A stretch of 53,389 bases of DNA from Candidatus Fermentibacteraceae bacterium (GCA_041686025.1 JAWLEP010000020.1:1-53389), one strand, 5' to 3'; counted from the stretch's first letter, positions 1,764 to 46,659 are shown. The notes: generated from the letters alone by a model not told the origin. Program-made: numbers and translations.

Positions 1764-2365
1764 TGGAGTCGGCGGCGGTTCTGGCCGGATCCTTCCTGGC
1801 GGGGTCGATCCCCTTCTCCTGGCTGCTGGGAAGGTTGCGGGGCACGGACATCAGGAGGAAGGGCTCGGGGAACGTGGGGGCCACCAACCTCCTGCGGACC
1901 TGCGGGACGGGCACAGGCGTGGCCGGGCTGGTGCTGGACGCCCTGAAGGGGGCGGCTCCGGTGACCGCCGCCATGGCCCTGGGCCTCTCCGGGCCGGTGC
2001 AGGCGGCCTGCGCGGTACTGGCGGTGCTGGGCCACGTCCTCACCCCCTGGCTGGGCTTCCGCGGCGGCAAGGGGGTGGCCACAGCAATGGGGGCCCTCCT
2101 GGTGCTGGCCACGTGGCCGGTGCTGGCGGCGCTGGGGGTTTTCGCCGCGGTGCTGGCGCTGTCGGGGTACGTCTCCCTGGCCTCCATCTGCGCCGCGGTG
2201 TCCCTGGTGCCCGCGTCGCTGCTCCTGATGCCCGGAGGCCACAACCTGGCCGTCCACGTGGTCTGCGGCCTGGTGGCCGCGCTGGTGGTGGTCCGGCACC
2301 TGGGCAACATCCGCCGGCTGCTGCGGGGCGAGGAGTCCAGGTTCTCCCCGGGGAGGGAGCGATGA
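1763..2365 (+). CDS. plsY: Glycerol-3-phosphate acyltransferase PlsY
   Basis: GSIPF, DIR.KGSGNVGATN, D.LKG, GH...W.GFRGGKGVAT and RH.GNI.RLL.G.E motifs; usual position after der. Confidence 0.96.
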   Translation: MESAAVLAGSFLAGSIPFSWLLGRLRGTDIRRKGSGNVGATNLLRTCGTGTGVAGLVLDALKGAAPVTAAMALGLSGPVQAACAVLAVLGHVLTPWLGFRGGKGVATAMGALLVLATWPVLAALGVFAAVLALSGYVSLASICAAVSLVPASLLLMPGGHNLAVHVVCGLVAALVVVRHLGNIRRLLRGEESRFSPGRER

Positions 2366-3141
2366 CCACCTCACCGGCCGGAACCTGGCTGCTGCTGCGA
2401 AGCCTGGTGGTGAAGGACCTGAAGGTCCGCTACAAGAGGTCGGTGCTGGGCTTCTTCTGGTTCCTCCTCAAGCCCCTGTTCAGCATGGTGGTCTACACCA
2501 TCGTATTCACCCGGATCATCCGGTTCGGCGGGGAGATAGAGCACTTCTCCCTGTTCCTGCTCACCGGCCTGCTGCCCTGGAACTTCTTCAGCGCCTCCCT
2601 GAACTCCTCCACCCGCTCCCTGCTGGACAACACCCGGCTTATAAGGAGCGTCTACTTCCCCCGGACCACTCTGCCGGTGGCGGAGGTGGTGGCCAACTCC
2701 GTCCACCTGGCCCTGGCCCTGTGCGTTCTGGAAGCCGCCCTGATCGCCTTCGGCCACTACCCCGGGCCCTCGCTGCTCCTGGTGATCCCCGCCACCCTGA
2801 TGTTGATGGCCATGGTCTCCGGCATGGGCATGATCCTGGCGGTGGGCAACGTGTTCTACCGGGACGTGGCCCAGCTGGTGGAGGTCCTGCTGCTGGCATG
2901 GTTCTACGCCTCCCCCATCATCTATCCGCTGGGGAAGGGCCTGGTGCCGGCCGCGGTGGAGAGCGCGGTGCGCTTCAACCCCCTCTCCGGCCTGCTCTCC
3001 ATCTTCCACTCCTGCCTCTACGAGGGCGGATGGCCCCCGGCGTGGGCCTGGCTGTCCCTGGTGGGGTGGACCCTGTTCTTCGTTCTGGTGGGAACGGCCG
3101 TGTTCCGGAGGGCCGAGCCGGTGGTTGTGAAGGAGCTGTGA
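2362..3141 (+). CDS. wzm: ABC-2 polysaccharide export permease (Wzm-like)
   Basis: ATG overlaps the plsY stop (ATGA). 'DLKVRYKRSVLGFFW', 'FYRDV', 'WFYASPIIYP', 'NPL'; about six hydrophobic segments. Confidence 0.92.
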   Translation: MTTSPAGTWLLLRSLVVKDLKVRYKRSVLGFFWFLLKPLFSMVVYTIVFTRIIRFGGEIEHFSLFLLTGLLPWNFFSASLNSSTRSLLDNTRLIRSVYFPRTTLPVAEVVANSVHLALALCVLEAALIAFGHYPGPSLLLVIPATLMLMAMVSGMGMILAVGNVFYRDVAQLVEVLLLAWFYASPIIYPLGKGLVPAAVESAVRFNPLSGLLSIFHSCLYEGGWPPAWAWLSLVGWTLFFVLVGTAVFRRAEPVVVKEL

Positions 3142-4340
3142 TGGCGGCGCCGGGTACCGTGGAGTTCCGGGACGTGGCCCTGGACTACCGGATATACCAC
3201 GACCGCACACTGAGCCTGATGGAGTCGGTGATGAACCTCTTCGGAAGGAGCAGCAGCAGCGAGACCTTCCGGGCCCTGGACGGCCTGACCTTCGCGGTGG
3301 CCCCCGGGGAGTCGGTGGCCATCATCGGCCCCAACGGCGCCGGGAAGTCCACCACGCTGAAGCTCCTGGCCGGGATCTACGAGCCCACGTCCGGAACCGT
3401 ATCGTCGGTGGGCCGCACGGCCTCGCTGCTGGACCTGGGGGTGGGGTTCCACCCCGAGCTCACCGGGGCGGAGAACGTCTACCTCAACGGCGCGCTGCTG
3501 GGCCTGGGCAGGGCCAGGATGGAGGAGCTGCTGCCGGAGATAGCGGAGTTCGCTCAGCTGGAGCGGTTCATGGACAGCCCGGTGAAGTACTACTCGTCGG
3601 GGATGTTCATGCGGCTGGGCTTCAGCCTGGCCACCTCGGTGGACCCGGACATACTGCTGGTGGACGAGGTGCTGGCGGTGGGGGACGCCTCCTTCCAGTC
3701 CCGCTGCTACGACAGGATCTACAGCTACAGGGGCTCGGGCCGGACCATCGTCTTCGTCTCCCACGACATGGAGGCGGTCTCCCGGCTGTGCGGGCGGGTG
3801 ATATGGCTGGACCGGGGGAAGGTGGTCCGTGACGGAAGCCCCGGGGAGGTGCTGCCGGAGTACCTGTCCAGCTCCAGCCGCCGGAGGGCGGAGGACGGGA
3901 GCGTGGCCCCGCGGGAGTGGGGCTCCCGGGAGGTCTGGTTCGACAGGGTGGAGCTCACCGATTCCACGGGGACCCCCCGGCGGCGGTTCCGGGCGGGGGA
4001 GAGGCTGCTGGTGAGAGCCCTGATAAGGGCCCGGGGCGGGGAGAGGGTGGAGGACATCGTCTGGGGCTTCTCCATACACCGCACCGACGGGGAGACCGTG
4101 GTGGGGGTGAACAACCTGGAGCTCAACCGCCCCCTGCTGACGGTGGAGGGCAGCCTGGAGGCGGAGCTGGAGATAGGCCTGGAGGTGCCCGAGCCGGGAA
4201 ACTACCTGCTGGGGCTGGCCCTCACCGATCCGGTGCGCAGGCGCGACTACCACTGGCTCGACTACCACTTCCCCCTGGAGCTGCTGGGGCCGCGCCGTAC
4301 CGAGCCGGTGAGGCTGGTGGACGCCGAGTGGCGCTGGTAG
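3141..4340 (+). CDS. wzt: ABC polysaccharide export ATPase (Wzt-like) with C-terminal carbohydrate-binding domain
   Basis: GPNGAGKST, GFHPELTG.EN, YSSGM, DEVLAVGD..F, VSH; a ~150-aa Ig-like Wzt_C extension starting near 'WGSREVWF'. Confidence 0.93.
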   Translation: MAAPGTVEFRDVALDYRIYHDRTLSLMESVMNLFGRSSSSETFRALDGLTFAVAPGESVAIIGPNGAGKSTTLKLLAGIYEPTSGTVSSVGRTASLLDLGVGFHPELTGAENVYLNGALLGLGRARMEELLPEIAEFAQLERFMDSPVKYYSSGMFMRLGFSLATSVDPDILLVDEVLAVGDASFQSRCYDRIYSYRGSGRTIVFVSHDMEAVSRLCGRVIWLDRGKVVRDGSPGEVLPEYLSSSSRRRAEDGSVAPREWGSREVWFDRVELTDSTGTPRRRFRAGERLLVRALIRARGGERVEDIVWGFSIHRTDGETVVGVNNLELNRPLLTVEGSLEAELEIGLEVPEPGNYLLGLALTDPVRRRDYHWLDYHFPLELLGPRRTEPVRLVDAEWRW

Positions 4341-5656
4341 ACCGCGGCGGCCCCCGACTCTGGGTCCCCCTGCTGGCCCTGGCCGTGATCCTGCCCCGGA
4401 TGGCATTCTTCGGCTTCCTGGGGGGTGCGCTGCCGGCGCCCCCCCGAGACCAGGAGCTCTACATCCGGCTTGCCGGCAGGATCGCCGGGGGGGAGGGGCT
4501 GTCCTTCTCCCCCGACGAGGCCGCGGCCAAGTACGGCAGGGTTCCGGACAACGTAGTGGGCCAGTCCTGGAGCGGCACCGAGAACCTGGTCTTCGGCATG
4601 GTGCCCGCCGGGGAGCCCACCGCCGCGGTGGAGCCGGGGTATCCGGTGCTCCTGGCCCTGGCCTTCGCCCTGCTGGGGCCGGTGAGCGGCGGGGTCTTCC
4701 TGCTGAACACCCTCTTCTTCCTGGCCGGTGCCTTCGCGGTGCGGCTGCTGGTGGCCGGCAGATGGGGGGAGCGGACGGCCAACCTGGCCGCCTTCCTCTG
4801 GGCCCTCTACCCGCCCTTCGTCTACTACACGGCCTACGCCATGACCGAGGCGGTCCACATATCCCTGCTGGCCGTGGTGCTGGCGCTGGCCGACCGGGCC
4901 GGGGGTAGACCGTGGTGGGCGGCGGGAGCGGGAGCGGCCCTGGGCGCGCTCTGCCTGGTGCGGGCCACCGCCCTGCTGATACTGCCCTTCCTATGCGGCT
5001 GGGTCCTGTGGCGCGTCCGGCGCGGCCGGAGCCTCCGCCCGGCGCTGGGCCGGACGGCCCTGATGGCCGTGGCCTTCATGGCGATGATGGTCCCCTGGAT
5101 GGCCCGCAACGCCTCCGCCCTGGGAGAACCGGTCCTGATGCCCACCAAGGGCTCGCTGAACATCTGGATGCGAAGCAATCCGGAGGCCCTGGAGCTGGAG
5201 GGGATCGGACTGCCCGGATGGGTGGAGGAGAGCATCGTCAACCGGCGGCTGCTGGAGTACCCCGACCTTCCCGCCGACGCCGGAGAGCTGGCCCGCAGCG
5301 AGGCCCTGGGGGACAGGGCCATGGACTTCGCCCTCTCCAACCCGGTGCTCATGGCCTGGCTGGTGCCCCTTCGCCTGGGGGCCTTCATGGACCCCTCCCC
5401 GGCGGGGGGCGCCGCCGGAATGGCCCAGCTGCTGCTCTTCGGCGGCCTGATGCTGCTGGGCAGCGCCGGCCTCTACCTCCACCGCCGCACCCCCACCGCG
5501 CAGCTGCTGGCCCTCTGCTTCGTGGCCTACGCCCTGGTCCATTCCCTGGCCCACGGCGGGGTGCGGTACAGGTTGCCGGTGGAGACCGTTATGATCGTGG
5601 GAACCGCTCTGCTGGCCTCGAGGTTGCTGTGGGGAAACGGAAGGGAATCGGCGTGA
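4328..5656 (+). CDS. GT-C fold membrane glycosyltransferase (ArnT/PMT-like), copy 1
   Basis: Multi-TM protein with 'DQELY', 'PGYP', 'MTE', 'VRAT', 'PWMARN' and 'RYRLP'. Start placed at GTG 4328, overlapping the end of wzt. Confidence 0.8.
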   Translation: MALVDRGGPRLWVPLLALAVILPRMAFFGFLGGALPAPPRDQELYIRLAGRIAGGEGLSFSPDEAAAKYGRVPDNVVGQSWSGTENLVFGMVPAGEPTAAVEPGYPVLLALAFALLGPVSGGVFLLNTLFFLAGAFAVRLLVAGRWGERTANLAAFLWALYPPFVYYTAYAMTEAVHISLLAVVLALADRAGGRPWWAAGAGAALGALCLVRATALLILPFLCGWVLWRVRRGRSLRPALGRTALMAVAFMAMMVPWMARNASALGEPVLMPTKGSLNIWMRSNPEALELEGIGLPGWVEESIVNRRLLEYPDLPADAGELARSEALGDRAMDFALSNPVLMAWLVPLRLGAFMDPSPAGGAAGMAQLLLFGGLMLLGSAGLYLHRRTPTAQLLALCFVAYALVHSLAHGGVRYRLPVETVMIVGTALLASRLLWGNGRESA

Positions 5657-7029
5657 GACGGAGGCCCGGGAGGATACTGCTGGTGTTTCCGGAGACTCGC
5701 TACCCCTCGGGGCAGCCGCCCCTGGGGCTGGCCATGCTCTCCGCCGTGGCCCGCCGAAGGGGTGGGGAGACCGCCGCCTGCGACATGTCCTTCCTGAAGC
5801 ATCCCTTCCGTACACTGCGCCGCCAGCTTGCGGAGATGCGGCCGGACACCGTGGGCATCTCCATACTGACCCCCCAGCTGGCGGACGCCGCAAGGGCCGC
5901 GGAGATCGTGCGGGAGGCGGCGCCGGAGGCATTTCTCGTCTGCGGAGGACCCCACGCCACGGTGATGCCCGAGGACACCATGGCCCGAACCGGGGCCGAC
6001 CTGGTCTACTCCGGGGAGGCCGAGGGGGCCCTGGCCCTTCTGATGGACGGCGCCGATCCCGCCGGGATCCCCGGGGCATGCCTGCCCGAGGGCGACGGCT
6101 GCCGCAGGACGCCCGGCCTCCTCCTGGCCGAGGACCTCGACCGGCTGCCCCTGCCCGACCGCTCCATCTTCGACATGGAGAGCTACTTCTCCAGCTGGTA
6201 CTCCATGGACCGGGTGGACCCGCGGCTTCGGGGGACCTCCGTGATGGCCACCAGGGGCTGCCCCTTCTCCTGTACCTTCTGCCAGCCCACCCTCAGCGAG
6301 ATCTTCGGGAAGACGATGCGCAAGCGCTCCCCGGAGGGAATAACCGACGAGCTGGAGCAGCTGAAGCGGGACTACGGCATAGACGCCTTCATGTTCGAGG
6401 ACTCCACCTTCGTGGTGGACGCCGGCTGGGTGCACGAGATCTGCGACCTGATGCTCTCCCGGCAGACGGGGCTGCGCTGGTGCTGCAACGTCCGGGCCGA
6501 CCTGCTGCAGCCCGAGCTGCTGGACCACATGGTGGAGGCCGGCCTCTCCAAGATCAACATGGGCGTGGAGTCCGCCTCCCAGCGGGTCCTGGACGACATC
6601 TACAACAAGGGCATAACCGTGGAGGGCGTACGCAGGGCCCTGGCGATGGCCAAGGAGCGGGGGGTATACGTGCAGGGCTACTTCATGCTCGGCGCCCCCG
6701 GGGAGACCCGGGAGGAGATGGAGCGCACCATCCGCTTCGCCTCCTCCGAGCCCTTCGACGACGCGGTTTTCGACATCACCACCCCCTTCCCCCATACCTA
6801 CCTGTGGGAGAAGACGAAGGACCTGATCAGGGGGGACTACGAGGAGTTCGACTGCTTCCACCGGTCCGTATACGAGCTGGAGGGCTTCGACCCCCGGGAG
6901 ATAGAGAGGATGAAGAAGCGGGCTTTCTGGCGCTTCTACGCCCATCCATCCAGGATCCTGCGCACCATCCGCACCGTCCTGGGCCCCCGCAACCTCCGGC
7001 GGACGCTGCTGAAGGCCCGGAGGGTATAG
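5653..7029 (+). CDS. B12-binding-domain radical SAM protein, copy 1
   Basis: GTG overlaps the upstream stop (GTGA). N-terminal 'PPLGLAML...GGPHAT' cobalamin-binding-like domain, CPFSCTFC, 'GVESAS', 'FMLG.PGET'. Confidence 0.92.
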   Translation: MRRRPGRILLVFPETRYPSGQPPLGLAMLSAVARRRGGETAACDMSFLKHPFRTLRRQLAEMRPDTVGISILTPQLADAARAAEIVREAAPEAFLVCGGPHATVMPEDTMARTGADLVYSGEAEGALALLMDGADPAGIPGACLPEGDGCRRTPGLLLAEDLDRLPLPDRSIFDMESYFSSWYSMDRVDPRLRGTSVMATRGCPFSCTFCQPTLSEIFGKTMRKRSPEGITDELEQLKRDYGIDAFMFEDSTFVVDAGWVHEICDLMLSRQTGLRWCCNVRADLLQPELLDHMVEAGLSKINMGVESASQRVLDDIYNKGITVEGVRRALAMAKERGVYVQGYFMLGAPGETREEMERTIRFASSEPFDDAVFDITTPFPHTYLWEKTKDLIRGDYEEFDCFHRSVYELEGFDPREIERMKKRAFWRFYAHPSRILRTIRTVLGPRNLRRTLLKARRV

Positions 7030-7030
7030 G

Positions 7031-7783
7031 ATGGCCTCCGCCACGGTGACCGTCACCATGGACGACGCCGGCGCGGACCCCGCGGTGAACGGTGCCCTGG
7101 CCCGCTGCCTGGAGGCCGGGGCCCTGGACTGCGTCAGCGTCATGGCCTCCGGCAGGCACTGGGAGGAGGCCTGCGACATGGCGGGGGAGTCGGGCCTGCC
7201 CGTCTCCGTGCACCTGAACTGCGTCGAGCCCCCCTTCCTGACCGATTCCGACTTTCCCGGCGGCATACTCTCCTGGACCCTCTACGCCTCCTCCCTGGCT
7301 CCCGCTGCCCGCAGGGAGTGGAGGATGCAGATCGAGCGGCTCCTCTCCCGGGGTCTGATGCTCACCAGGATGGACGGCCACAGGCACCTGCACCACCTGC
7401 CCCCGCTGCGGGAGGCGGCCCTGGACCTGGCCGAGGAGTACGGAATCCGCATCGTCCGGGCAGCGGTGGTTCCCCCCGGGGACGGGGGCCTGCGGGGCCT
7501 CTACCTGCGCCGTCTGGGCAGGCGGCTGGCCGAAGGGGCCCGGGCAAGGGGCCTGGCGGCCACCTCGCTGATGCTGGGCTTCGGCCGCAGCGGCCGGGTG
7601 GGAAAGCGCTACCTGCAGAGGGCCGAGCGGCTCCTGGACTCTGCGGGGCTGTCCGGCGACGACGAGGTGGAGCTGGTGATGCACCCGGCGCTGAGGCCGG
7701 TATGGAGCGGGGGACAGCCGGAGGAGCTCTCACTTCTCACATCAGATTGGTACGGGCAATGGTCACGTCGCAACAGAGGCTGA
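7031..7783 (+). CDS. YdjC/ChbG/HpnK-family carbohydrate deacetylase
   Basis: 'MDDAG', 'VHLN', 'DGHRHLH' and 'ELVMHP' motifs of the YdjC family. Confidence 0.85.
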   Translation: MASATVTVTMDDAGADPAVNGALARCLEAGALDCVSVMASGRHWEEACDMAGESGLPVSVHLNCVEPPFLTDSDFPGGILSWTLYASSLAPAARREWRMQIERLLSRGLMLTRMDGHRHLHHLPPLREAALDLAEEYGIRIVRAAVVPPGDGGLRGLYLRRLGRRLAEGARARGLAATSLMLGFGRSGRVGKRYLQRAERLLDSAGLSGDDEVELVMHPALRPVWSGGQPEELSLLTSDWYGQWSRRNRG

Positions 7784-9129
7784 CCCGGGCGCTGCTGCTG
7801 CTGGCCCTGCTGGCCAGGGTGTTCGTGGGCCTCCTTGCCGCCCGGGGCGTGTTCCTTCTGGGGGAGGGGAGGATGCAGGCGGCCCTGGCGGGCAGGATGA
7901 TGGAGGGCGAGGGCTTCTCCATTCCCCGGGAGATGCTCTATCCCGACATCCCTCCGGAGCGCAGCAACCCCCTGCTGGAGAGGACGTTCGAGTTCTACCG
8001 GGAGGTGGACGGCTTCTACGGGGTCCTGAGGCCGGAGAGGCCCACCACCTTCCTGGTGCCGGGGTATCCGGTCTTCCTCTGCGGGGTGTACGCCGTGTTC
8101 GGGGTGGGGAGCCACCTGGCGGTGAGGCTGGTCCAGCTCCTGCTGGGAATGGTCACCGTGGCCCTGGGCCTGGCCCTGGCCCGCCGCTTCCTCTCCGGCA
8201 GGCGGTACGCCCTGGCCGGGCTCTTCATCGCCCTGGACCCCTTCGAGCTGTACTACGAGGCCATTCCCGCCACCCAGGCGCTGTTCAGCCTTCTGTTCAT
8301 CGGCGGGCTGCTGCTCTCGCTGCGCCTGATCCGCAGGCCGGGATGGAAGGAGGGCCTGGCCGCCGGCCTGGTGTGGGCCGCGGCCTTCTACGTGCGCCCC
8401 GCCGCCCTGCCCGTCTTCCTGTGGACGGTTCCGGTGGTCCTGGCCGCCGGCCGGCTCTCTGGGAGGTCCATAGCCGGCTCGGCGGTGGTCCTGGGGGTCT
8501 TCTTCGCCGCCATGGTCCCCTGGATGGCCAGGAACCACAGGGTCTCGGGCAGGGCGATCCTGCTGCCCACGCAGGGGGGGGTGCAGCTGTGGGAGGCGGC
8601 CGGCCGGCCTCTCACCGACCATTTCCAGGACGAGACCAGGGGGGCCAGGACCCTCTACGGCCCCACCAGAAGCTACTGGATCGACAGGGTGGAGTCCCGC
8701 CGGCTGGCGGAGTTCCCGGAGTTCACCGAAGAGAGCGAATGGTACAGGGACAGCGTTCTCTACAGCAGGATGACCCGGTTCATCGGCCGGAACCCCGTCT
8801 ACTACCTGCACACCATGCTGCTGCGGTTCGCCGAGTTCTTCAAGCCCTTCCCGCTGAACGTATTCTCGCCCGTCTACGTTCTGGCCGGGCTACTGGGGTT
8901 CTTCTGGGTGACGGTGTTCGCCGGGGCGGGGTCGATACTGGCCGCCCTCCGGCGCGGCCCCGGCGGCTTCTACCTGGCCACCTCCGTGTGGGGATACGCC
9001 CTGATGCACCTGATCACCATCTCCGGGACGCCCCACAGGGTGGCCATCGACTTCCCGCTGATGGTGCTGGCCACCATGGGCCTGGCCCACGCCTGGCGAC
9101 GGCTGCGGGCCGGAAGGCGGGAGCATTGA
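7759..9129 (+). CDS. GT-C fold membrane glycosyltransferase (ArnT/PMT-like), copy 2
   Basis: Multi-TM protein with 'PGYP', 'VRP' and 'MVPWMARN...LPTQG', shared with copy 1. Start ATG 7759. Confidence 0.8.
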   Translation: MVTSQQRLTRALLLLALLARVFVGLLAARGVFLLGEGRMQAALAGRMMEGEGFSIPREMLYPDIPPERSNPLLERTFEFYREVDGFYGVLRPERPTTFLVPGYPVFLCGVYAVFGVGSHLAVRLVQLLLGMVTVALGLALARRFLSGRRYALAGLFIALDPFELYYEAIPATQALFSLLFIGGLLLSLRLIRRPGWKEGLAAGLVWAAAFYVRPAALPVFLWTVPVVLAAGRLSGRSIAGSAVVLGVFFAAMVPWMARNHRVSGRAILLPTQGGVQLWEAAGRPLTDHFQDETRGARTLYGPTRSYWIDRVESRRLAEFPEFTEESEWYRDSVLYSRMTRFIGRNPVYYLHTMLLRFAEFFKPFPLNVFSPVYVLAGLLGFFWVTVFAGAGSILAALRRGPGGFYLATSVWGYALMHLITISGTPHRVAIDFPLMVLATMGLAHAWRRLRAGRREH

Positions 9130-10139
9130 CCCGGACCCTGCTGGTGAAGACCCACGCCTTCGGGGACGCGCTGCTGTCCACCCCGGCCGCCGCCGGCCTG
9201 GTGGAGGCCGGGCACAGTGTTACGGTACTGGCCGGACCCTCCTCGCTTCCGGTGTGGGAGCGGATGCCGGGCCTCGCAGCGGTGCGGACCGCGCCCTCCC
9301 CTCCGCAGGGCCCCCTGGGCGCGCTGCACCTGGCGGCATGGACCCTGCGGGCGCGGGCGAGCTTCCGCGGCTTCCACCGGGTGGTCTACCTGGGCCGGTC
9401 GCCGGCGGTGAGGAGGTGGCTGCGGTTCCTCACCGGGGCCGCCATGCGCAGCGGCGGGGATGAGCCGCTGGGGGACTGGGAGACGGTCTTTCCGCAGCGG
9501 GAGGGGGAGCTGGCCTCCGCCGCCTTCGGGCGAATGGCGGGAGTGGAGCCGGACTCCCTGACCCCCCGCTTTCCCCTGGCCCCCGGGGAGATGGAGCGGG
9601 CCCGGAAGAGGCTGGGGGGCGGCGATTGGCTGGCCGTGGCCCCCGGGGGAGGCGACAACCCCCGCGACAGCGTGGCCGAGAAGCGCTGGGCCCCGGGCCG
9701 GTTCGCCGGGGTTTGCCGCGCGGTGATGGACCGTGGAATCCGGGTGGTGCTGCTGGGAGGGCCGCGGGACGCCGGGGCCGCCTCACGGGTGGAGGCCGAG
9801 GCCCCGGGGGTCCTGAACCTCACGGGGACCACCGGATGGGGCGAGACCGCCGCCCTGACGGCGGCGGCCGGCAGGTTCCTGGGGGTGGACAGCGGGCCCG
9901 CCCACCTGGCCACGGCGGTGGGGGCCGGCGCTGTGGTGATGTTCGGGCCCACCGCACCCGACTGCCTCTACGCGCCTGGCCTGGTGCGGCCGGTGCTGTC
10001 GGCTGCGGAGTGTGCGCCCTGCTACGCCAACATGCCCTTCCCCGGCTGCCCCCGGGGGGGCGGCTGCATGGAGATGATCACCGCGGACATGGTTCTGGAG
10101 GCCCTGGCCCCGATCCTCGGCGGAGGTAGCGGAGAATGA
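9126..10139 (+). CDS. Glycosyltransferase family 9 (heptosyltransferase-like)
   Basis: TTG overlaps the upstream stop. 'FGDALLSTP', 'KRW', 'DSGPAHLA', 'FGPT' and a C-terminal CxPC...C...C cluster. Confidence 0.88.
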   Translation: MTRTLLVKTHAFGDALLSTPAAAGLVEAGHSVTVLAGPSSLPVWERMPGLAAVRTAPSPPQGPLGALHLAAWTLRARASFRGFHRVVYLGRSPAVRRWLRFLTGAAMRSGGDEPLGDWETVFPQREGELASAAFGRMAGVEPDSLTPRFPLAPGEMERARKRLGGGDWLAVAPGGGDNPRDSVAEKRWAPGRFAGVCRAVMDRGIRVVLLGGPRDAGAASRVEAEAPGVLNLTGTTGWGETAALTAAAGRFLGVDSGPAHLATAVGAGAVVMFGPTAPDCLYAPGLVRPVLSAAECAPCYANMPFPGCPRGGGCMEMITADMVLEALAPILGGGSGE

Positions 10140-11587
10140 GGGTCCTGATGCTCAACCCCCCCTTCCTGCCGGGCTACAGCAGGGGCCAGCGCAGCCCGGC
10201 GGTTACCCGCAGCGGGACGCTCTACTACCCCATCTGGCTCTCCTACGCCGCGGGAGCCCTGGAGCAGGCGGGCCACGAGGTGCTGCTGCTGGACGCGCCG
10301 GCTGCGGAGCTGGATCGGGAGGCGGTCATGGACAGGGCCCGGAAATTCGCCCCGGACCTGGCGGTGGTGGAGACCTCCACCCCCTCCATCTGCTCCGACG
10401 CCGCCATGGCCGACAGCCTGGCCGCCGTGGCGGAGGAGGTGCTGCTGGTGGGGACCCACCCCGCGGCCCTGCCGGAGGCGACCGTGCAGCTGGGGAAGAG
10501 GTTCTCGGGGGTGGTGACCGGCGAGTACGAGATGCCGCTGCTGGGGGTCTGCGAGGCCATTCAGTCCGGCAGCAGCCTTAGGAACGTGCCGGGCCTCTGC
10601 CTCAGGGAGGGTGAGGAGACGGTGCTAACCGGTCCCGGGGAGCTGGTGGAGGACCCGGACTCCCTGCCCTGGGTGAGCCGGGTCTACGCCCGCCACCTGC
10701 CCATCGAGCGCTACAACAACCCCAACGCCCTTCACCCGCAGGTGATGATAATGGGCGGGCGGGGCTGCCCCTTCGGCTGCAGCTTCTGCGTCTTCCCCCA
10801 GACCCTCACCGGAAGGCGGCTCCGCCGGCGCTCGGTGGAGGACATCGTGGGGGAGGTGCTCTGGGTCCAGGAGAACCTGCCGCAGGTGCGGGCCGTCTTC
10901 TTCGAGGACGACACCATCTCCGCCGACAGGGAGCGGCTGCGCAGGCTGGCCGCGGAGATGCTCCGGCGGGGAGTGGAGGTCTCCTGGACGGCCAACATGC
11001 GCGCGGACGTGGACTACGAGACCCTCCGCGCCTGCCGCGAGGCCGGCCTGAGGACCGTCTGCGTGGGTTTCGAGAGCGGAAGCCCCGGGCAGCTGCGGAA
11101 CATGGGCAAGGGCATAGACCCCGGGACCATGCGCCGCTTCGCCCGGGACGCCAGGCGGGCGGGGGTGCTCGTTCACGGCTGCTTCATGGTGGGCATCCGC
11201 GGGGAGACCCGCGAGACCATGCGCCAGACGCTGGAGCTGGCCCTGGAGCTGGACCCCGACACCGCGCAGTTCTACCCCCTGATGGTCTACCCGGGCACCC
11301 GCGCCTACCGCGAGGCCCGGGAGGACGGCAACCTCATACCCTCCACATGGCGGGACTGGCTGGACGCGGAGGGTCTGCACAGCTGCGTGGTGCGCACGGG
11401 TGAGCTGTCGGCTGCGGAGCTGGTGGAGTTCTGTGACTACGCCCGGCGGCGCTTCTACCTCCGGCCGCGCTACATTCTGCGCAAGCTGCTGGCCAGCCTT
11501 CGCGACTCCGACGAGAGGCACCGGACGCTGAAGGCCTTCGGGACGTTCTGGCGCCACCTGGTCCGCAGGCGCAGGGCGCGAGGGTGA
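10136..11587 (+). CDS. B12-binding-domain radical SAM protein, HpnJ-like, copy 2
   Basis: 'LNPPF...RSPAVTRSGTLYYPIWL' N-terminus resembles HpnJ-type enzymes; CPFGCSFC, 'FFEDD', 'VGFESG', 'YPGT'. Confidence 0.9.
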   Translation: MRVLMLNPPFLPGYSRGQRSPAVTRSGTLYYPIWLSYAAGALEQAGHEVLLLDAPAAELDREAVMDRARKFAPDLAVVETSTPSICSDAAMADSLAAVAEEVLLVGTHPAALPEATVQLGKRFSGVVTGEYEMPLLGVCEAIQSGSSLRNVPGLCLREGEETVLTGPGELVEDPDSLPWVSRVYARHLPIERYNNPNALHPQVMIMGGRGCPFGCSFCVFPQTLTGRRLRRRSVEDIVGEVLWVQENLPQVRAVFFEDDTISADRERLRRLAAEMLRRGVEVSWTANMRADVDYETLRACREAGLRTVCVGFESGSPGQLRNMGKGIDPGTMRRFARDARRAGVLVHGCFMVGIRGETRETMRQTLELALELDPDTAQFYPLMVYPGTRAYREAREDGNLIPSTWRDWLDAEGLHSCVVRTGELSAAELVEFCDYARRRFYLRPRYILRKLLASLRDSDERHRTLKAFGTFWRHLVRRRRARG

Positions 11588-12552
11588 CCGGGCCGGTGCC
11601 TGCCGCGTCGGTGGTGGTGCCCGCGCTTCCGGGGAACGCCGCGGCCCGGGAGTGCCTCCGGGCGCTGAACGGACAGACCGTCCGGGGCGGCCTGCAGCTG
11701 GTGCTCTCTCTGGACGGCAGGGGCGGCTCCCCGGCGGCGGAGCTGGCGGACCTGGTTGTGGAGGGGCCCCACGGCGGACCGGCGGCGGCCAGGAACAGGG
11801 GGTGGAGGTCGGCGGCGGCGGGGATTATTCTATTCACCGATGCGGACTGCCTCCCCGAGCCGGACTGGGCCCAGCGGATGATGGAGTCGCTGCAGGAAGG
11901 GGCCGACGCCGCCAAGGGGGTCTACAGCCACGGCGGCGACAGGGTCGTCCAGCGGCTGGCCCAGGTGGAGTTCGAGGAGCGCTACGCCTTGCTCAGCAGG
12001 GGGGAAACCATAGACATTGTCGACACCTACTCCGCCGGCTACCGCCGGGAGGCCCTGGAGAGGGTGGGGGGATTCGACGAGGGCTTTCCGGTGCCCGACC
12101 ACGAGGACGTGGACCTGAGCTACCGGCTGGCGGAGGCCGGCTTCTCCATGGTCTTCGCCCCCCTGGCCCGGGTGGCGCATGCCCATCCGCCCACCTGGGG
12201 CGACTACGCCAGGCTGAAGTTCTCCCGCGGCCGCTGGAGGGCGCGGGTGCTGAGGAGGTTTCCCTCCCGGGCCTCCGGAGACGGCTACACGCCCCTGGCG
12301 ATGCGGGCTCAGATACTGATGGCGGCTGCGCTGCCGATGGCGGCTCTGTCGGCCGCTCTCGCCCCGGCGGCCACCGTGGCGGCCTATGCGGGCCTGTGGG
12401 CCCTCACCTCTCTGCCCCTCTTTCTCAGAGCCCTCCGCCACGATCCCCCGGTGGCCCCGCTGGTGCCCGTCTTCTGCGCCGTCCGGGCCTTCGCCCTGGC
12501 CGGCGGTCTGGCCGCCGGCGCTTTCAGGGAGGCGGCATGCTGGCGCCGGTAA
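11584..12552 (+). CDS. Glycosyltransferase family 2 with C-terminal TM helices
   Basis: 'AAARNRG', 'FTDADC' (DxD), 'GGFDE.F...EDVDLSYRL'. Confidence 0.9.
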   Translation: MTGPVPAASVVVPALPGNAAARECLRALNGQTVRGGLQLVLSLDGRGGSPAAELADLVVEGPHGGPAAARNRGWRSAAAGIILFTDADCLPEPDWAQRMMESLQEGADAAKGVYSHGGDRVVQRLAQVEFEERYALLSRGETIDIVDTYSAGYRREALERVGGFDEGFPVPDHEDVDLSYRLAEAGFSMVFAPLARVAHAHPPTWGDYARLKFSRGRWRARVLRRFPSRASGDGYTPLAMRAQILMAAALPMAALSAALAPAATVAAYAGLWALTSLPLFLRALRHDPPVAPLVPVFCAVRAFALAGGLAAGAFREAACWRR

Positions 12553-13928
12553 GGAAGTCCGACCGCGTGCTGATAGTGTTCCTGGCCGCAGCCGACCTGC
12601 TGGCCATACCCCTGGCCTTCCTGCTCACGTGGTGGCTGCGCACCGGGGCCCTGGCCGGCCCCCTGCCGGCCTTCCACCACGTGTTCGCCGACTACCTTCT
12701 CGCCCTGCCCGTGGTGGCCGTTCTGTGGATGGTCTGCTGGGGCCGCAACGGCCTCTACCGCCCCATGCGGTCCACAACGGGCATGGAGCGGATACAGAGG
12801 CTCTTGAAGGCCGCCTTCGCGCTGGCGGTGTCCATGATGGCGGCCAGCTACCTGGTCAAGAGGGACTACTCCCGCCTGATGCTCTTCATGTTCGTGTTCA
12901 CGTCGGTGCCCATGTCGCTGCTCCTTCGGGCCCCGGCCAGGTGGCTGGCCGAGAGGCTGGCGCCCATACGCTCGGTGCCCAGGATCCTGGTGGTGGGAAG
13001 CGGGGAGGTGGCCGCGAGGGTACTGAAGACGCTGCAGCAGCTCCCCGCTCCCCCTCCGGAGCTGGTGGGGGTGCTCACCGACGACCCGGAGATCCAGGGA
13101 GAGGCCTTCCACGGGGCGGAGGTCCTGGGGAGGGTCAGCGAGCTGCGCAGGCTGGCGGTGAGCCTCAAGGTGGACGAGGTCTTCTTCGCCTCACCCAACC
13201 TGGACCGCTCGCGGGTGCTGGACCTGATCAGCTCGGTTAAGGGCCGCGACATCCACTACCGCATGGTCACCGACCTCTTCGAGATAGCCACCGGCACCAC
13301 CAGCCTCGACGACATGGCCCGCCTGCCGATAGTGGAGATAGGCTACGGGAAGCCCGGCTTCCTGTACCGCTTCCTCAAGCGAACCATAGACTTGGTGGTC
13401 TCCCTTCTGCTTCTGGCGGTACTGGCTCCCCTGTTCGCCCTGGTCTGGGTACTGCTGCGGATAACGGCGGAGGGCTCGCCCATCTTCCGGCAGAGGAGGG
13501 TGGGCCTGGCGGGCAAGGAGTTCACCCTGCTGAAGTTCAGGACCATGGTGCCGGACGCCGACGAGTACGAGGTGGCGCCCATGGAGAAGGACGACCCCAG
13601 GGTGACTGCGGTGGGCGGCTTCCTGCGCAGGACAAGCCTGGACGAGCTTCCCCAGCTGGTCAATGTCTTCCGGGGGGAGATGAGCCTGGTGGGCCCCCGG
13701 CCGGAGATGCCCTTCATCGTGGACAAGTACAACCGATGGCAGCTGCGCAGGCTGGACGTCAGGCCGGGAATTACCGGTCTGTGGCAGATAATGGGCAGGA
13801 AGGACTTGCCGCTGCACGAGAACATCGAGTACGATTTCTACTATATCCGCAACCAGTCGCTGATGCTGGATTTTGCTATATTGCTGCGAACCGTGCTTAT
13901 CATTCTCAAGGGCAGGGGGGCCTACTGA
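12537..13928 (+). CDS. Polyprenyl glycosylphosphotransferase (WcaJ/WbaP-like initiating sugar transferase)
   Basis: N-terminal TMs, a CoA-binding-like segment, and C-terminal 'KFRTM', 'DDPRVT', 'SLDELPQL', 'MSLVGPRP', 'PGITG.WQ'. Confidence 0.94.
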   Translation: MLAPVRKSDRVLIVFLAAADLLAIPLAFLLTWWLRTGALAGPLPAFHHVFADYLLALPVVAVLWMVCWGRNGLYRPMRSTTGMERIQRLLKAAFALAVSMMAASYLVKRDYSRLMLFMFVFTSVPMSLLLRAPARWLAERLAPIRSVPRILVVGSGEVAARVLKTLQQLPAPPPELVGVLTDDPEIQGEAFHGAEVLGRVSELRRLAVSLKVDEVFFASPNLDRSRVLDLISSVKGRDIHYRMVTDLFEIATGTTSLDDMARLPIVEIGYGKPGFLYRFLKRTIDLVVSLLLLAVLAPLFALVWVLLRITAEGSPIFRQRRVGLAGKEFTLLKFRTMVPDADEYEVAPMEKDDPRVTAVGGFLRRTSLDELPQLVNVFRGEMSLVGPRPEMPFIVDKYNRWQLRRLDVRPGITGLWQIMGRKDLPLHENIEYDFYYIRNQSLMLDFAILLRTVLIILKGRGAY

Positions 13929-15445
13929 TGAACGAGGATGCGTCCGGCCCCATCTTTCGGGACTCCCCCATAGGCATGCTGGTGGTCCGGGAGGGCAGGG
14001 TAACCCTGGCCAATGCCGAGGCCATCCGCTTCCTGGGGGCCTCCTCCGCAGACGACGTGGCGGGCAAGCGCCTGGAGCAGGTGATTCCGGTGGACCTCCG
14101 CTCCCGGTCCAGCCTGCTTCCGGCACTGGACCGGCTGGCCCCCGGGGACATCCGGTCCTTCGAGAGGGAGCTGGCCCTTCCGGGAGCCGTCTACACCCCG
14201 GTGACCATCCGCGCCACCTGCCTGGAGGGGGGCATGAAGCTGCTGTGCCTCCTGGACAACTCCGAGGTCAGCGACCTCAAGCGGTCGCTCTTCGAGAGCG
14301 AGGAGCGCAGAAGGGCGCTGCTCTCGTGCCTGGACGCCCCCGTCCTGGGAATCGACGGCGACTACCGCATCATGTGGGCCAGCCGGGGGGCCGCCCAGAA
14401 GGCTGGGGTCAACACCCATGAGATGGTGGGCAGGCTGTGCTACCGTGTCCTGCGGTCGCGGGTGAAGCCCTGCCGGGGCTGTCCGGCGCCGCTGGCCACC
14501 GCAGGCTCCGGCCCGGCCACCGGACAGGTGGAGAGCGGCTCTGCCAGTGTCAGGGTGGTGGCAACCGCCGTGCGGGGGTCGGAAGGCTACAGGTCCGGAA
14601 GCGTGCTCTACTGCCCCGACGAGGCCTCCGAGCGCAGCTCCCCGGGAGGGGACGGCGGCGTGGCTCAGCTGGCCCCGGACTACTACATCGCTCCCGCCTG
14701 GCAGGACGTCCTTCTGCTGCGGCTGGACCGCGGCCACAAGGTGCTGTCCTGGCTGGCGCCCCGCAGGGGGCCCGGCAGGAAGGCGGCCCTGGCCGTGAAG
14801 AGGCAGGTGCCTCTGGCCGAGCTGTTCGAGCCCGGTTCCCGCCAGTCGGTTACCGATGCCCTGCGGCTTCTGGAGAGCCCGGGAGACTCCGCTTCCGCCA
14901 GAGCCATAAGGCTGGGAGGAATAGAGGCCTCGGCCACCATGATCGCCCACTCCGATGGAGCCCTGGTTCTGGTGGGATGCATGGAAGGCGGCACTCCCGG
15001 GGACGGGTCAGGCCTCAGCCTGACGCAGGTGGCCCGGCAGGCGGCCGGGGAGCTGGAGAGAGCCCTGGGCCAGCCGGTGGAGCTGCGTATCGAAGAAGAG
15101 GATGACGAAGACGGCATCTCCCGGGTGGAGACGGACATGAGCATTCTGGAGGCCTTCCGGCGGATAGGCAGGACCCCGCCGCAGGGCTTCGGACGCATGG
15201 GCCTGAAGCTGGTCCTGGGTCGTCTGCAGCTGGAGCGGCCCATGCACGACCTCAGCCCGGGCAGCTACATAGGACTGCATCTCACCAACCGGGACGACGG
15301 GGACCCCATGGAGCCCCCGCCCGACGGGCACATAAGGTCGATGCCGCTGGAATCGGAGCCGGAGGGAAGGATTCTGGTGAGCGCGGTCTCCAGCGATGTG
15401 CATTCCTACACTGTAGTGCTGCCCGATCGGAAGGGAGGCCGGTGA
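13928..15445 (+). CDS. Multi-PAS protein with a degenerate histidine-kinase-like C-terminus
   Basis: PAS signatures 'IFRDSPIGML...ANAEA' and 'LLSCLDAPVLGID...GRLCY...PCRGCP'. The C-terminal 'LSPGSYI' and 'GRILVS...YTVVLP' recall HATPase_c, but the H, N, G1, F and G2 boxes are not recognisable. Confidence 0.65.
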   Translation: MNEDASGPIFRDSPIGMLVVREGRVTLANAEAIRFLGASSADDVAGKRLEQVIPVDLRSRSSLLPALDRLAPGDIRSFERELALPGAVYTPVTIRATCLEGGMKLLCLLDNSEVSDLKRSLFESEERRRALLSCLDAPVLGIDGDYRIMWASRGAAQKAGVNTHEMVGRLCYRVLRSRVKPCRGCPAPLATAGSGPATGQVESGSASVRVVATAVRGSEGYRSGSVLYCPDEASERSSPGGDGGVAQLAPDYYIAPAWQDVLLLRLDRGHKVLSWLAPRRGPGRKAALAVKRQVPLAELFEPGSRQSVTDALRLLESPGDSASARAIRLGGIEASATMIAHSDGALVLVGCMEGGTPGDGSGLSLTQVARQAAGELERALGQPVELRIEEEDDEDGISRVETDMSILEAFRRIGRTPPQGFGRMGLKLVLGRLQLERPMHDLSPGSYIGLHLTNRDDGDPMEPPPDGHIRSMPLESEPEGRILVSAVSSDVHSYTVVLPDRKGGR

Positions 15446-15452
15446 TAGAAGC

Positions 15453-16142
15453 ATGATACGGGTGATCGGAGATGATCCCGGGGTTACCAGGGACATAGTA
15501 TCGATGATACAGGGTGCCGGCGGGGAGGACGCGGCGGCCGGACCACCGGAGGAAGCGGAGCCCATGCCCTCGCTTCTGGTGGCCCATGGAATCGACTCCA
15601 TACGTTCGGTCTGCGGTCTTGTGAACCATCGTGGAGAGTACTTCCAGCCCTTTCTGGGGCTTGTCGGCTCGATGGAGGAGGCCGAGAAGGCCAGAGACTG
15701 CGGAGTAAGCGACGTCGTGTTCTACCCGACGGGCAGAGAGGAGCTGGTCTACAGGGCTGTCAAAATAATGGGCGACAGCGTGTTCAGGCTTGGTGACGCA
15801 GTTGCCGCCAGACACCTCATCCGCTTTCTCGTCGCCTGGTCGCATCGCTACAACTCCAACTTCAGCGTCATGAGGTTCACATGGCCGGGTGATGACAAGA
15901 CAGCGCTCAGGGACCTGGCGCTGGACCTGATGATCAACCTCAGGCTCTCCGACCATCTCTGCAGGCTCTCCAACGGAGATCTTGTAGCGCTTATGCCCGA
16001 GACCAGCCGGGAGCAGGCAACCATCGCCCTGGAGAGGCTCAGGCGAACTATCCCGGCGGTGGCCGACGGGGAGCTGAAGGTCTGCTTCGATGGCGGAGGC
16101 TTCGGAGACCTGACCGCCGAGGAGCTCCTGGAGAGGCTCTGA
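15453..16142 (+). CDS. Degenerate receiver domain + degenerate GGDEF domain protein
   Basis: 'IRVIGDD', 'GVSDVVFYP...EELVYR' (REC-like); 'RYNSNFSV', 'LRLSDHLCRLSNGDLVALMPET...ALERLR' (GGDEF-like). Confidence 0.7.
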   Translation: MIRVIGDDPGVTRDIVSMIQGAGGEDAAAGPPEEAEPMPSLLVAHGIDSIRSVCGLVNHRGEYFQPFLGLVGSMEEAEKARDCGVSDVVFYPTGREELVYRAVKIMGDSVFRLGDAVAARHLIRFLVAWSHRYNSNFSVMRFTWPGDDKTALRDLALDLMINLRLSDHLCRLSNGDLVALMPETSREQATIALERLRRTIPAVADGELKVCFDGGGFGDLTAEELLERL

Positions 16143-45064: not shown

Positions 45065-45447
45065 GGGCTGCGGCGGCGGTCACCGCCCTGATCCTAGTCG
45101 CGACGGTATCCCTGGGATCCGGCTGCGAGTCGGGGCAGGCGGACGGGCTGTCGAACCGCTGGAAGCTCAACGAGTGCAGGGCCAACATGAACACCCTGGC
45201 CACGGACCAGGCCCTCTACATGCTCATCACCGGCGAGTGGACCGGCTCGATGGCCAAGCTGGACAGCATAGGCAAGAGAAGACAGGCGCTGGTCTGCCCC
45301 TCGTGCCGGAGCGGGTATGCAATCGACCTCTACGACGGCGGATACATCATCCACTGCCCAGTGGAGGAGCACGGCTCTGTGGACACCGGAGTACCCAGCT
45401 GGGGAGAGCGGCCGGTGGCCGCAACGGATGAACCGGGAAGCCGATAG
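45061..45447 (+). CDS. Hypothetical exported Cys-rich protein (pseudopilin-like head)
   Basis: Signal with possible lipobox 'GSGC'; 'ECRANM..L...Q..Y', 'CPSC..GY', 'I.CP..EHG'. Confidence 0.6.
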   Translation: MRAAAAVTALILVATVSLGSGCESGQADGLSNRWKLNECRANMNTLATDQALYMLITGEWTGSMAKLDSIGKRRQALVCPSCRSGYAIDLYDGGYIIHCPVEEHGSVDTGVPSWGERPVAATDEPGSR

Positions 45448-45453
45448 ACGGCC

Positions 45454-45481
45454 TTGACGGTGAGGCAGGATTACTTATGAT
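45454..45481 (+). promoter_or_regulatory. Putative promoter of tRNA-Ala
   Basis: TTGACG-16 nt-TATGAT, 15 nt upstream of the tRNA. Confidence 0.65.
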
Positions 45482-45496
45482 GGCCGTGCTTTCAGA

Positions 45497-45573: not shown

Positions 45574-45578
45574 CGGCG

Positions 45579-45607: not shown

Positions 45608-45641
45608 TTCGATGACAGACCCTAATGGAAAAACCGGGGAC

Positions 45642-46044: not shown

Positions 46045-46063
46045 CAGAGAGGGTGGGGTAAAA

Positions 46064-46642: not shown

Positions 46643-46659
46643 CACAACGGCCTGAGTGC

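Follow-up and report, generated by a model that had tools for sequence, protein, structure and literature searches.

A conserved eight-gene envelope-glycan run in Candidatus Fermentibacteraceae likely joins two radical SAM modules, one of them close to HpnJ

The window, the whole 53,389-nucleotide stretch of DNA analysed, contains an eight-gene run on the plus strand with its core at 4328–12552, and with wzm/wzt and the gene for a WcaJ-type glycosylphosphotransferase at its flanks (Table 1). From plsY to the WcaJ-type gene each junction is either an overlap of 1–25 nt or a 1-nt gap. A preliminary description of this DNA had listed a tightly coupled series of these genes, in this order, between wzm/wzt and a WcaJ-like initiator, and all of this is borne out. 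The host is an uncultured anaerobic bacterium. An RNA run covers the entire window with contigs approximately 95% alike; DNA carry-over is possible and this coverage is hence not evidence of transcription.

Table 1. Genes of the run and its immediate context, with window coordinates and principal matches.
Gene and predicted product	Coordinates	Strand	Basis
wzm, ABC-2 glycan exporter permease (context)	2362..3141	+	PF01061; NF050109 below cut-off
wzt, ABC ATPase with C-terminal Wzt_C carbohydrate-binding domain (context)	3141..4340	+	PF00005 and PF14524, 49.6 bits
GT-C1, membrane glycosyltransferase, Module A	4328..5656	+	PMT_2 weak; conserved first-loop Asp41
rSAM1, class B radical SAM, Module A, likely C-methyltransferase	5653..7029	+	PF02310 and PF04055
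YdjC-family deacetylase (predicted), metal site intact	7031..7783	+	PF04794, 119 bits
GT-C2, GT-C1 paralogue, Module A	7759..9129	+	PMT_2; GT-C fold model; conserved first-loop Glu36
GT9, heptosyltransferase-like, Module B	9126..10139	+	PF01075, 70 bits
rSAM2, Module B, uncharacterised family sister to or containing HpnJ	10136..11587	+	TIGR03471, 347.8 bits
GT2, Module B, membrane GT-A, minimal hyaluronan/cellulose-synthase-like fold	11584..12552	+	Model and motifs
WcaJ/WbaP-type polyprenyl-phosphate glycosylphosphotransferase (context)	12537..13928	+	TIGR03025, 396.8 bits, above cut-off

The eight-gene order is conserved beyond chance. Of the 32 loci fetched from Ca. Fermentibacterota relatives, 20 have all eight genes in this order (counting L048, where the order was established by tblastn), and the synteny thus recurs in other genomes, as the preliminary description had proposed to check. 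The remaining loci comprise one with seven genes and a truncated WcaJ gene, five that are rearranged, and six that end at a contig or fetch boundary within the run. In five relatives other than G006, the genes absent from the run turned up at other sites and are thus not lost; gene loss was likewise rejected for G010, G016, G022 and G023, where the genes have moved. In six relatives of genus g9 wzm/wzt do not lie directly upstream, and wzt is located elsewhere in three of the four genus-g9 genomes searched. The genome has three paralogues of the WcaJ-type gene, this one included. The run likely joins two gene modules that are separate elsewhere, rather than encoding one pathway: Module A likely consists of GT-C1, rSAM1 and GT-C2 together with an unlinked carrier loader of the ArnC/DPM type, and Module B likely consists of GT9, rSAM2 and GT2. 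A literature search for a description of the system found nothing (subscription papers and bioRxiv supplements were outside its scope).

GT9 contains the conserved motifs FGD and DSG-AH, and GT2 contains D, DxD, ED and KFxRGxW motifs. The predicted GT2 model (pLDDT 96.4) has PcManGT (PDB 6yv7; E 5.5e-12) as its top Foldseek match and aligns with hyaluronan synthase at Z 26.4 (rmsd 3.1, 306 aligned). Among solved chains, only that of PcManGT, which we take to work on a lipid-linked glycan, covers GT2 profile positions 2–239 in one stretch; solved ArnC, GtrB and DPMS chains match positions 1–118 only. These three are also absent from the best 50 rows of fold matches, which alone excludes nothing, and at ~20% identity to PcManGT and the hyaluronan and cellulose synthases the fold does not reveal donor or acceptor. 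GT2 has no match at E≤0.001 to the ArnC, AglJ or PpgS families and none to the HpnI family (TIGR03472), and BLAST against annotated HpnI reaches E 0.01 at best. By sequence family GT2 is neither LgmA/ArnC-type nor HpnI, and on that basis it was rejected as an undecaprenyl-phosphate (Und-P) loader.

Among the families tested, rSAM2 is by sequence the nearest relative of HpnJ. The HpnJ family model is its best match, although the cut-off of 577.6 bits is not reached; BchE is next at 133 bits, and identity to annotated HpnJ is 34% over the full length. In a 29-row tree with a reference set of three HpnJ rows, one methylase identified by context and no Cds, the rSAM2 family and the HpnJ rows form a clade with 100/100 support and a stem of 0.88. 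Of the two radical SAM proteins, which the preliminary description had suggested placing against HpnJ and methylases, rSAM2 thus groups with HpnJ and rSAM1 falls outside, as does the MoeK5-like methylase. The same clade has SH-aLRT support of 100 in an 83-row tree, and HpnJ is either sister to or nested within the rSAM2 family (support 75/81). A search for the family yields 4537 matches at E≤1e-60 among 8000 scored, a number that probably includes true HpnJ and is not used as family size.

Both radical SAM proteins had been described as B12 enzymes, which holds for rSAM1 by its motifs and is uncertain for rSAM2. Cobalamin-binding motifs (G-x-S, GG and GE; PMC9204698) were aligned onto both through TokK, whose lower-axial W76 aligns to Pro in each and does not discriminate between them. 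In rSAM1, Radical_SAM and B12-binding Pfam matches are both above cut-off, the cysteines C203, C207 and C210 (CX3CX2C) are invariant in 24 orthologues, and the pocket motifs are present as G/S-x-S/T, GG and GE (the latter two in 7/7 rows). No NCBIfam family scores above cut-off (HpnJ, 150.2 bits). The motifs make cobalamin dependence of rSAM1 well supported; the enzyme is likely a C-methyltransferase. rSAM2 also matches Radical_SAM above cut-off, but most of the 45 rows of its family have V-x-D/E at the G-x-S position, GG is replaced by VG in 40 of the 45, and Asp or Glu takes the place of the cobalamin-tail-binding serine in 43. HpnJ resembles the family at these sites (V-x-H and V/I-G). rSAM2 retains one Gly and the Glu of GE, and OxsB likewise has a single Gly there.

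By analogy with HpnJ, rSAM2 would likely ring-contract a membrane glycoside. The kinship nevertheless leaves its reaction unfixed because in a published network HpnJ falls together with Fom3 and MoeK5, both of them methylases (PMC9204698). With rSAM2 scoring 47.1 for B12-binding PF02310 against a cut-off of 32.1, and a family member on a Lawsonia plasmid sitting among methyltransferases, both radical SAM proteins could be MoeK5-like methyltransferases that make C-methyl branched sugars, with the modules unchanged. Most class B enzymes are indeed methylases. However, 25 residues are specific to the rSAM2 family and HpnJ, the branch that unites them excludes the MoeK5-like protein, and the cobalamin-tail serine is replaced, making this reading unlikely.

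The rSAM2 family also has AprD4 as its best sequence match among solved structures (E 7.8e-36), a dehydratase that does not bind cobalamin (PMC12931638). Together with DUF362-ferredoxin genes near rSAM2 in 29 of 80 outside loci and recurrent molybdopterin oxidoreductase genes, this is consistent with a different radical reaction on a sugar that needs no cobalamin, for instance diol dehydration of the AprD4 type to a deoxysugar, with neighbours as redox partners. The AprD4 model scores rSAM2 at only 86.6 bits against 347.8 for HpnJ, however, and there is no reductase partner within the operon; we regard such chemistry as quite improbable.

In the 80 outside loci, rSAM2 is paired with the same synthase-fold GT2 subfamily in 45 (as the adjacent gene in 37), across many phyla and in archaea (L114 and L132). 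GT9 is nearby in 36, lipid A acyltransferase-like genes in 17, WcaJ in 12, a GT-C of the window's family in two, wzm/wzt in one and YdjC in none, although YdjC occurs somewhere in 11 of 51 genomes. wzm/wzt and WcaJ are thus dispensable as neighbours. The archaeal pairs, the scarcity of WcaJ and its truncation in one relative, and the action of both HpnJ and Cds on lipid glycosides would fit a Module B whose product is a membrane glycerolipid with a calditol-like cyclitol as its head group, GT9, WcaJ and wzm/wzt being mere neighbours. This is decidedly unlikely, as the GT9 and acyltransferase-like neighbours, and an O-antigen-ligase-domain gene following the Module B GT2 in G077 and G083, point to LPS-type glycans. 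No kinship is detectable between the window's Wzy_C/TPR protein and the Wzy_C protein beside Module B in G077 (E 0.1).

Squalene-hopene cyclase (shc) was not found in any of the 35 genomes with the same gene order, which include a single-contig assembly; the preliminary description had seen no hopanoid genes nearby and had proposed this genome-wide check. shc is present in 7 of 50 outside genomes searched (covering 50 of the 80 loci). A hopanoid explanation was rejected on these counts.

The candidate loader of Module A is an ArnC/DPM-type GT2 gene on a contig other than the window's (G000:C8:14776-15576; ArnC model E 2e-18, below cut-off), single-copy in 33 of 35 same-order genomes. It is likely linked to the GT-Cs and rSAM1 because of synteny in a second lineage and co-loss in one relative. 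The second lineage, whose members are closely related (G077, G083 and, from a metagenome, locus L172), has the order ArnC-like GT2, GT-C1 orthologue (278–283 bits), rSAM1 orthologue (609–624 bits), ArnC-like GT2, YdjC and class B radical SAM; metagenome locus L171 has the rSAM1-loader-YdjC portion. GT9-rSAM2-GT2 is located apart from this cassette in G077 and G083, which have 36–40 PMT_2 matches. The best G000 matches of the second-lineage loaders are on C8 and C13, with C13 almost tied; reciprocally, the two best matches of the C8 gene in G077, and likewise in G083, are exactly these loaders (orthology at ~40% identity). In G006 (95% complete) the C8 loader, GT-C1, GT-C2 and rSAM1 are all missing through deletions at three sites in gap-free DNA, a single event in a single genome, and YdjC-GT9-rSAM2-GT2-WcaJ, six other PMT_2 matches and lpxC are retained. 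rSAM1-like proteins also occur in G065 (501 bits) and G053 (432 bits) without the Module A cassette. An AglJ/PpgS-like gene (G000:C45:8646-9446) was rejected as loader, being patchy and absent even where the GT-Cs are present (among others in G002, G003, G007, G013 and G016). The GtrA flippase profile (PF04138) has no match in five genomes and is positive in 8 of 14 controls. lpxC, lpxB and waaA are present in the genome, and lipid A is thus available.

GT-C1 and GT-C2 (442 and 456 aa; 28% identity) score 24.3 bits, just missing the cut-off of 26.1, and 34.9 bits respectively against PMT_2, and neither matches an NCBIfam family. The predicted GT-C2 model (pLDDT 93.1) has the GT-C fold, with ArnT (Z 23.1, rmsd 4.1, 314 aligned), Pmt4 (23.0) and Pmt1/2 (22.8) tied as matches and STT3 at 22.1; the fold thus does not place the Module A GT-Cs nearer to ArnT than to the protein O-mannosyltransferases. 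A GT-C profile finds no solved structure by sequence, and an Atlas search returns only uncharacterised PMT_2 clusters. The metal-site residues of YdjC (D11, D12, H61, H117 and H121) are invariant in 26 rows. Its module membership is ambiguous and uncertain: it is intact in G006, where the GT-Cs and rSAM1 are absent, and the second-lineage YdjCs adjoin Module A genes yet do not group with that of the window.

The preliminary description had merged two logics in one pathway, in which the operon GT2 would load GlcNAc onto Und-P, YdjC deacetylate it, a radical SAM contract or methylate it, and the GT-Cs transfer it. The coupling of all genes in a conserved run, the position of YdjC between the GT-Cs and the presence of both modules in G077 and G083 are consistent with this. 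However, GT2 has a synthase-type fold and no ArnC match, a separate ArnC-type loader tracks the GT-Cs, and the modules are lost and moved independently, as in G006. In the outside loci, rSAM2 with GT2 lacks YdjC in 80/80 and a GT-C of the window's family in 78/80. Lacking a ring oxygen, a carbocyclic sugar is no glycosyl donor, so ring contraction cannot precede GT-C transfer; a single route is on these grounds highly improbable. Of the proposed HpnI/J/K likeness, the kinship of rSAM2 with HpnJ is upheld; GT2 is not HpnI, and YdjC scores 65 bits against the HpnK cut-off of 232.6. Of the proposed LgmABC-like route, a carrier-loader/GT-C system with a radical SAM appears to exist, with a loader other than the operon GT2.

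We tentatively favour, at a little under an even chance, a reading in which Module A likely C-methylates an Und-P-borne sugar, which the GT-Cs would pass on to an acceptor outside the cytoplasm, while the sugar that the Module B GT2 would add to a membrane acceptor likely undergoes ring contraction. In Module A, the C8 GT2 would load a monosaccharide onto Und-P, YdjC may de-N-acetylate it, rSAM1 would C-methylate the lipid-linked or nucleotide sugar with the help of SAM and cobalamin, a flippase would move it across the membrane, and GT-C1 and GT-C2, judging from their fold, would hand it to lipid A, an LPS glycan or a protein as acceptor in the periplasm. In Module B, WcaJ probably primes the acceptor, and with GT9 would build a short lipid-linked glycan, unless the acceptor is the LPS inner core; the synthase-fold GT2 would then attach a hexose or HexNAc through a true glycosidic bond, rSAM2 would abstract H5 and reclose the ring to a cyclopentitol ether, the course suggested for HpnJ and calditol synthase, and the product may leave as a terminal cap, possibly via Wzm/Wzt. 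The products of the two modules probably share one envelope layer, and this would account for the joining of the modules in one run. A broader version is somewhat unlikely: that the rSAM2 family is a large and old group of glycoside ring-contractases capping envelope glycans or lipids with cyclitol ethers across many bacterial phyla and in archaea, possibly cobalamin-free and with HpnJ a specialised offshoot, and that rSAM1 makes a C-methyl amino sugar on Und-P within a loader/GT-C system.

The run resembles HpnI/HpnK/HpnJ in the full-length homology of rSAM2, the membrane GT2 as next gene and a YdjC in the run, and differs in that all matches are below cut-off or missing, shc is lacking, and the rSAM2 family usually has no nearby YdjC. 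Module A shares an ArnC/PgfS-type GT2, a YdjC and GT-C-fold transferases with Bordetella LgmABC, Francisella FlmF/NaxD/FlmK (both presumably loader/deacetylase/GT-C sets) and Pgf, and differs in its conserved class B radical SAM, its unlinked loader and the lack of a GtrA match. LgmB adds GlcN to lipid A (PMC11401268), and Streptococcus mutans PgfS/PgfM1/PgfM2 combine one loader with two GT-C paralogues, as Module A does (bioRxiv 2024.05.05.592596). MoeK5 is likewise a class B enzyme among glycosyltransferases acting on a lipid-linked glycan and shares the G-x-S and GG motifs with rSAM1, but serves an antibiotic (moenomycin) pathway without a GT-C. The protein compared (L146, S. clavuligerus pSCL4) was recognised from its neighbouring genes, in part through what we take to be the moe gene order, and groups with neither rSAM1 nor rSAM2. 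For Sulfolobus calditol synthase (Cds), one source proposes that a hexose on a lipid is radically ring-contracted with no prior deacetylation, bases the ring contraction by HpnJ and Cds on knockouts, and calls the HpnJ mechanism unexplored (PMC13459092). By that description Cds would fit an rSAM2 family mostly without YdjC, but acts on GDGT lipids.

As a hopanoid-free family that is sister to or contains HpnJ and has a fixed partner in GT2, the rSAM2 family provides many soluble enzymes, possibly with simpler substrates, for testing radical ring contraction and its need for cobalamin. Module A is a defined set (loader, YdjC, radical enzyme and two GT-Cs) open to in vitro rebuilding, and predicts radical tailoring of an Und-P sugar, of which our literature searches found no description. 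Unusual surface sugars are predicted for the phylum Ca. Fermentibacterota, which according to one report can make up as much as 8% of biomass in anaerobic digesters (PMC5030696), and G006 provides a natural loss-of-module comparison.

The genes lying between the Wzm/Wzt exporter genes and a WcaJ-type polyprenyl-phosphate glycosylphosphotransferase gene in the window, contig C20 of a 2.70 Mb genome of 94.75% completeness, are tightly packed, with junctions that either overlap or leave a 1-base gap. The parts of the run belong to known kinds. The analysis establishes its gene content, folds and catalytic-type residues and a division into two separable modules; no hopanoid cyclase was found. Module A contains GT-C1, rSAM1 and GT-C2, together with a probable unlinked ArnC/DPM-type loader on contig C8 (14776-15576); Module B contains GT9, rSAM2 and GT2; and YdjC, whose metal ligands are kept, could serve either. 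The preliminary description had merged these into one route in which GT2, YdjC, a radical SAM enzyme and a GT-C act on a lipid-linked amino sugar; the two-module architecture is, in our judgement, probable.

Genes of the run and its immediate upstream flank
Gene	Position	Strand	Remark
der, then plsY	upstream of wzm	+	gene order
wzm	2362-3141	+	
wzt	3141-4340	+	with Wzt_C
GT-C1	4328-5656	+	
rSAM1	5653-7029	+	
YdjC	7031-7783	+	
GT-C2	7759-9129	+	
GT9	9126-10139	+	
rSAM2	10136-11587	+	
GT2	11584-12552	+	
WcaJ-type PGT	12537-13928	+	

The synteny recurs, with the complete eight-gene order in 20 of the 32 relatives' loci fetched; the other 12 include one with a truncated WcaJ, six cut by ends and five that are rearranged. 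An rSAM2 orthologue (59-80% identity) is present in 33 of 34 same-order relatives, in one of them as contig-split pieces, and in G025 (80% complete) the rSAM2 paralogue alone was seen. Some genes of the run are broken: only a piece of WcaJ remains in G031, while the WcaJ of G033 and the YdjC of G027 are each split (L025:12028-12282; L048:11920-13118; L051:6528-7218). These breaks may be either genuine or sequencing errors. Squalene-hopene cyclase was searched for in 35 same-order genomes, and none was found. The lpxC, lpxB and waaA genes are present, in agreement with the description of the phylum Ca. Fermentibacterota as diderm-LPS (PMC5030696).

The separation of the modules is seen in relative G006 (95% complete), which is without GT-C1, rSAM1 and GT-C2 and keeps an intact YdjC together with GT9, rSAM2, GT2, WcaJ and wzm/wzt. 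When 35 whole genomes were searched, strong GT-C matches, rSAM1 and YdjC each turned up in 34, and in five relatives (G002, G010, G016, G022 and G023) the genes missing from the run are relocated elsewhere. Outside the phylum, rSAM1-like proteins occur in 4 of 51 genomes and in metagenome loci. Two genomes labelled Acidobacteriota (G077 and G083) and metagenome locus L172 have a cassette with, in this order, an ArnC-like GT2, GT-C1 and rSAM1 orthologues, a further ArnC-like GT2, YdjC and another class B radical SAM gene, and in both genomes GT9-rSAM2-GT2 with an O-antigen-ligase-domain gene lies away from it. At L174 an ArnC/PgfS-like GT2 adjoins a more distant rSAM1 relative, and no cassette was found in G065 and G053, which carry rSAM1-like proteins, or in L173.

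Since the cassette of this second lineage includes ArnC-like loaders, a loader was predicted elsewhere in the source genome, where contigs C8 and C13 hold the best matches. When the C8 gene is compared with G077 and G083, its two top matches are the pair of loaders in the cassette, its identification as a loader being made at ~40% identity. Of 35 genomes, 33 have one copy of it, and it is missing in G006 and G034 (77% complete). In G006 it has been excised, in gap-free DNA, from the start of a GT4/GT2 operon that is intact in all other respects, and six PMT_2 matches and lpxC are retained; four genes at three sites were thus lost jointly in G006, a single instance of such a loss. A gene upstream of the loader, named flavin-reductase-like from sequence, is gone from this site in G006 along with it (L291:8068-8771 in G006 versus L278:3461-5577); its product could supply electrons to a radical enzyme, and it is not adjacent to the loader in three other relatives. 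The loader is followed by a conserved operon (C8:15575-25025; L278:5576-15026) that encodes three GT4s, one GT2 and a pair of large membrane proteins and may build the polymer exported by Wzm/Wzt.

Within Module A, GT-C1 and GT-C2 are paralogues (28% identical), and the first outer loop of each carries a conserved acidic residue (D41 and E36 respectively). The GT-C2 model (pLDDT 93.1) matches ArnT (Z 23.1), Pmt4 (23.0) and Pmt1/2 (22.8) equally, which speaks to the fold and not to the acceptor. Three class B models unrelated to one another give rSAM1 150-154 bits, and it keeps the G-x-S, GG and GE cobalamin motifs. A carrier loader, a deacetylase and a GT-C make up the Bordetella LgmABC and Francisella FlmF/NaxD/FlmK systems. 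Module A would resemble LgmABC or PgfS/PgfM1/PgfM2 as a carrier-loader/GT-C system (PMC11401268; bioRxiv 2024.05.05.592596) with an added radical step, most likely C-methylation.

None of the parts qualified as a member of the HpnI, HpnJ or HpnK families. The best family of rSAM2 is HpnJ (347.8 bits versus a cut-off of 577.6; BchE is second at 133), and a full-length comparison with annotated HpnJ gives 34% identity. In a tree of 29 proteins, which has no calditol synthase (Cds) and as its sole methylase a MoeK5-like protein identified by gene context, the rSAM2 family joins three HpnJ rows (100/100; branch length 0.88), with rSAM1, five other genome paralogues and the MoeK5-like protein outside. 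A quick tree of 83 rows gives the same grouping, and 25 residues that the rSAM2 family shares with HpnJ are rare in the remaining rows; in rSAM2 and HpnJ, the cobalamin motif G-x-S is lost and GG mostly lost. In a published network, two methylases, Fom3 and MoeK5, share a group with HpnJ (PMC9204698), which limits what the tree says about the reaction.

GT2 matched neither HpnI nor ArnC in a family-profile search. The D, DxD, ED and KFxRGxW motifs are kept in a 59-member alignment and the membrane part is C-terminal. PcManGT is the first Foldseek match of the model (pLDDT 96.4), and structural alignment gives hyaluronan synthase (Z 26.4, rmsd 3.1, 306 aligned), cellulose synthase (21.9) and PcManGT (21.5). 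This modelled architecture suggests an enzyme glycosylating a membrane-held hydroxyl, unlike known Und-P loaders.

Contraction of a sugar ring takes out the ring oxygen; a contracted product therefore could not be a GT-C donor and must be an end product, which supports the split between modules. In Module B a membrane-bound acceptor would be glycosylated and rSAM2 would then likely contract the sugar ring, on the model of the reaction proposed for HpnJ and Cds (PMC13459092). Each module's reaction is given roughly even chances, and the whole account of two modules with their reactions, slightly less. A literature search of titles and abstract openings returned no description of the rSAM2 family and no radical enzyme in a loader/GT-C system.

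Neighbourhoods outside the phylum were counted within up to 10 kb for the best 80 of 586 GTDB loci (Nitrospirota, Planctomycetota, Desulfobacterota, Fibrobacterota, Chloroflexota and archaea), many of them on short contigs and with kin that do not count as independent. The same GT2 subfamily is near rSAM2 in 45 of these 80 (the immediate next gene in 37), and in 10 the gene that follows is a different or split GT2. GT9 is nearby in 36, a DUF362-ferredoxin gene in 29, a lipid A acyltransferase-like gene in 17, a WcaJ-type gene in 12, a GT-C of the GT-C1/GT-C2 family in two, wzm in one and YdjC in none. Among the outside rSAM2 genomes searched, 7 of 50 have shc (six above cut-off) and 11 of 51 any YdjC. 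In Nitrospirota, Desulfobacterota and Planctomycetota (L061-L110) rSAM2 is often immediately preceded by the DUF362-ferredoxin gene, and a molybdopterin oxidoreductase often lies downstream of GT2; in Fibrobacterota loci the gene on the upstream side is thioredoxin-like. An rSAM2-family member on a Lawsonia intracellularis plasmid (L141:9531-10994; 42%) neighbours methyltransferases, heptose-pathway-like genes and GT2s.

Within its 2.7 Mb the source genome carries ten radical SAM genes of class B type (C3, C11, C20 ×2, C28 ×2, C45 ×3 and C66), the C45 cluster having its own AglJ/PpgS-like GT2. On C3, the stretch 61740-65800 (L054:8740-12801) holds a second rSAM2-family gene with 46% identity; after it come a membrane GT2 of another sort, which matches the HpnI model weakly (50.8 bits), and another WcaJ-type gene; this paralogue is in most relatives, with a WcaJ-type gene after it in 6/6 of their loci fetched.

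Directly 3′ of WcaJ in the window (13928-16142) are a PAS-domain protein gene, whose synteny is kept in several relatives, and the gene of a small protein that matches GGDEF weakly. At 19655-23738 a WecA/MraY-family gene is followed by one for a 1003-aa protein with an O-antigen-ligase domain and TPR, which might act on the exported glycan as a ligase or as a protein glycosyltransferase. The 3′ end (42719-53372) falls from ~0.68 GC to 0.52-0.58 past 45 kb and encodes two C25 (gingipain-family) peptidases, a BNR-repeat protein and two transposases.
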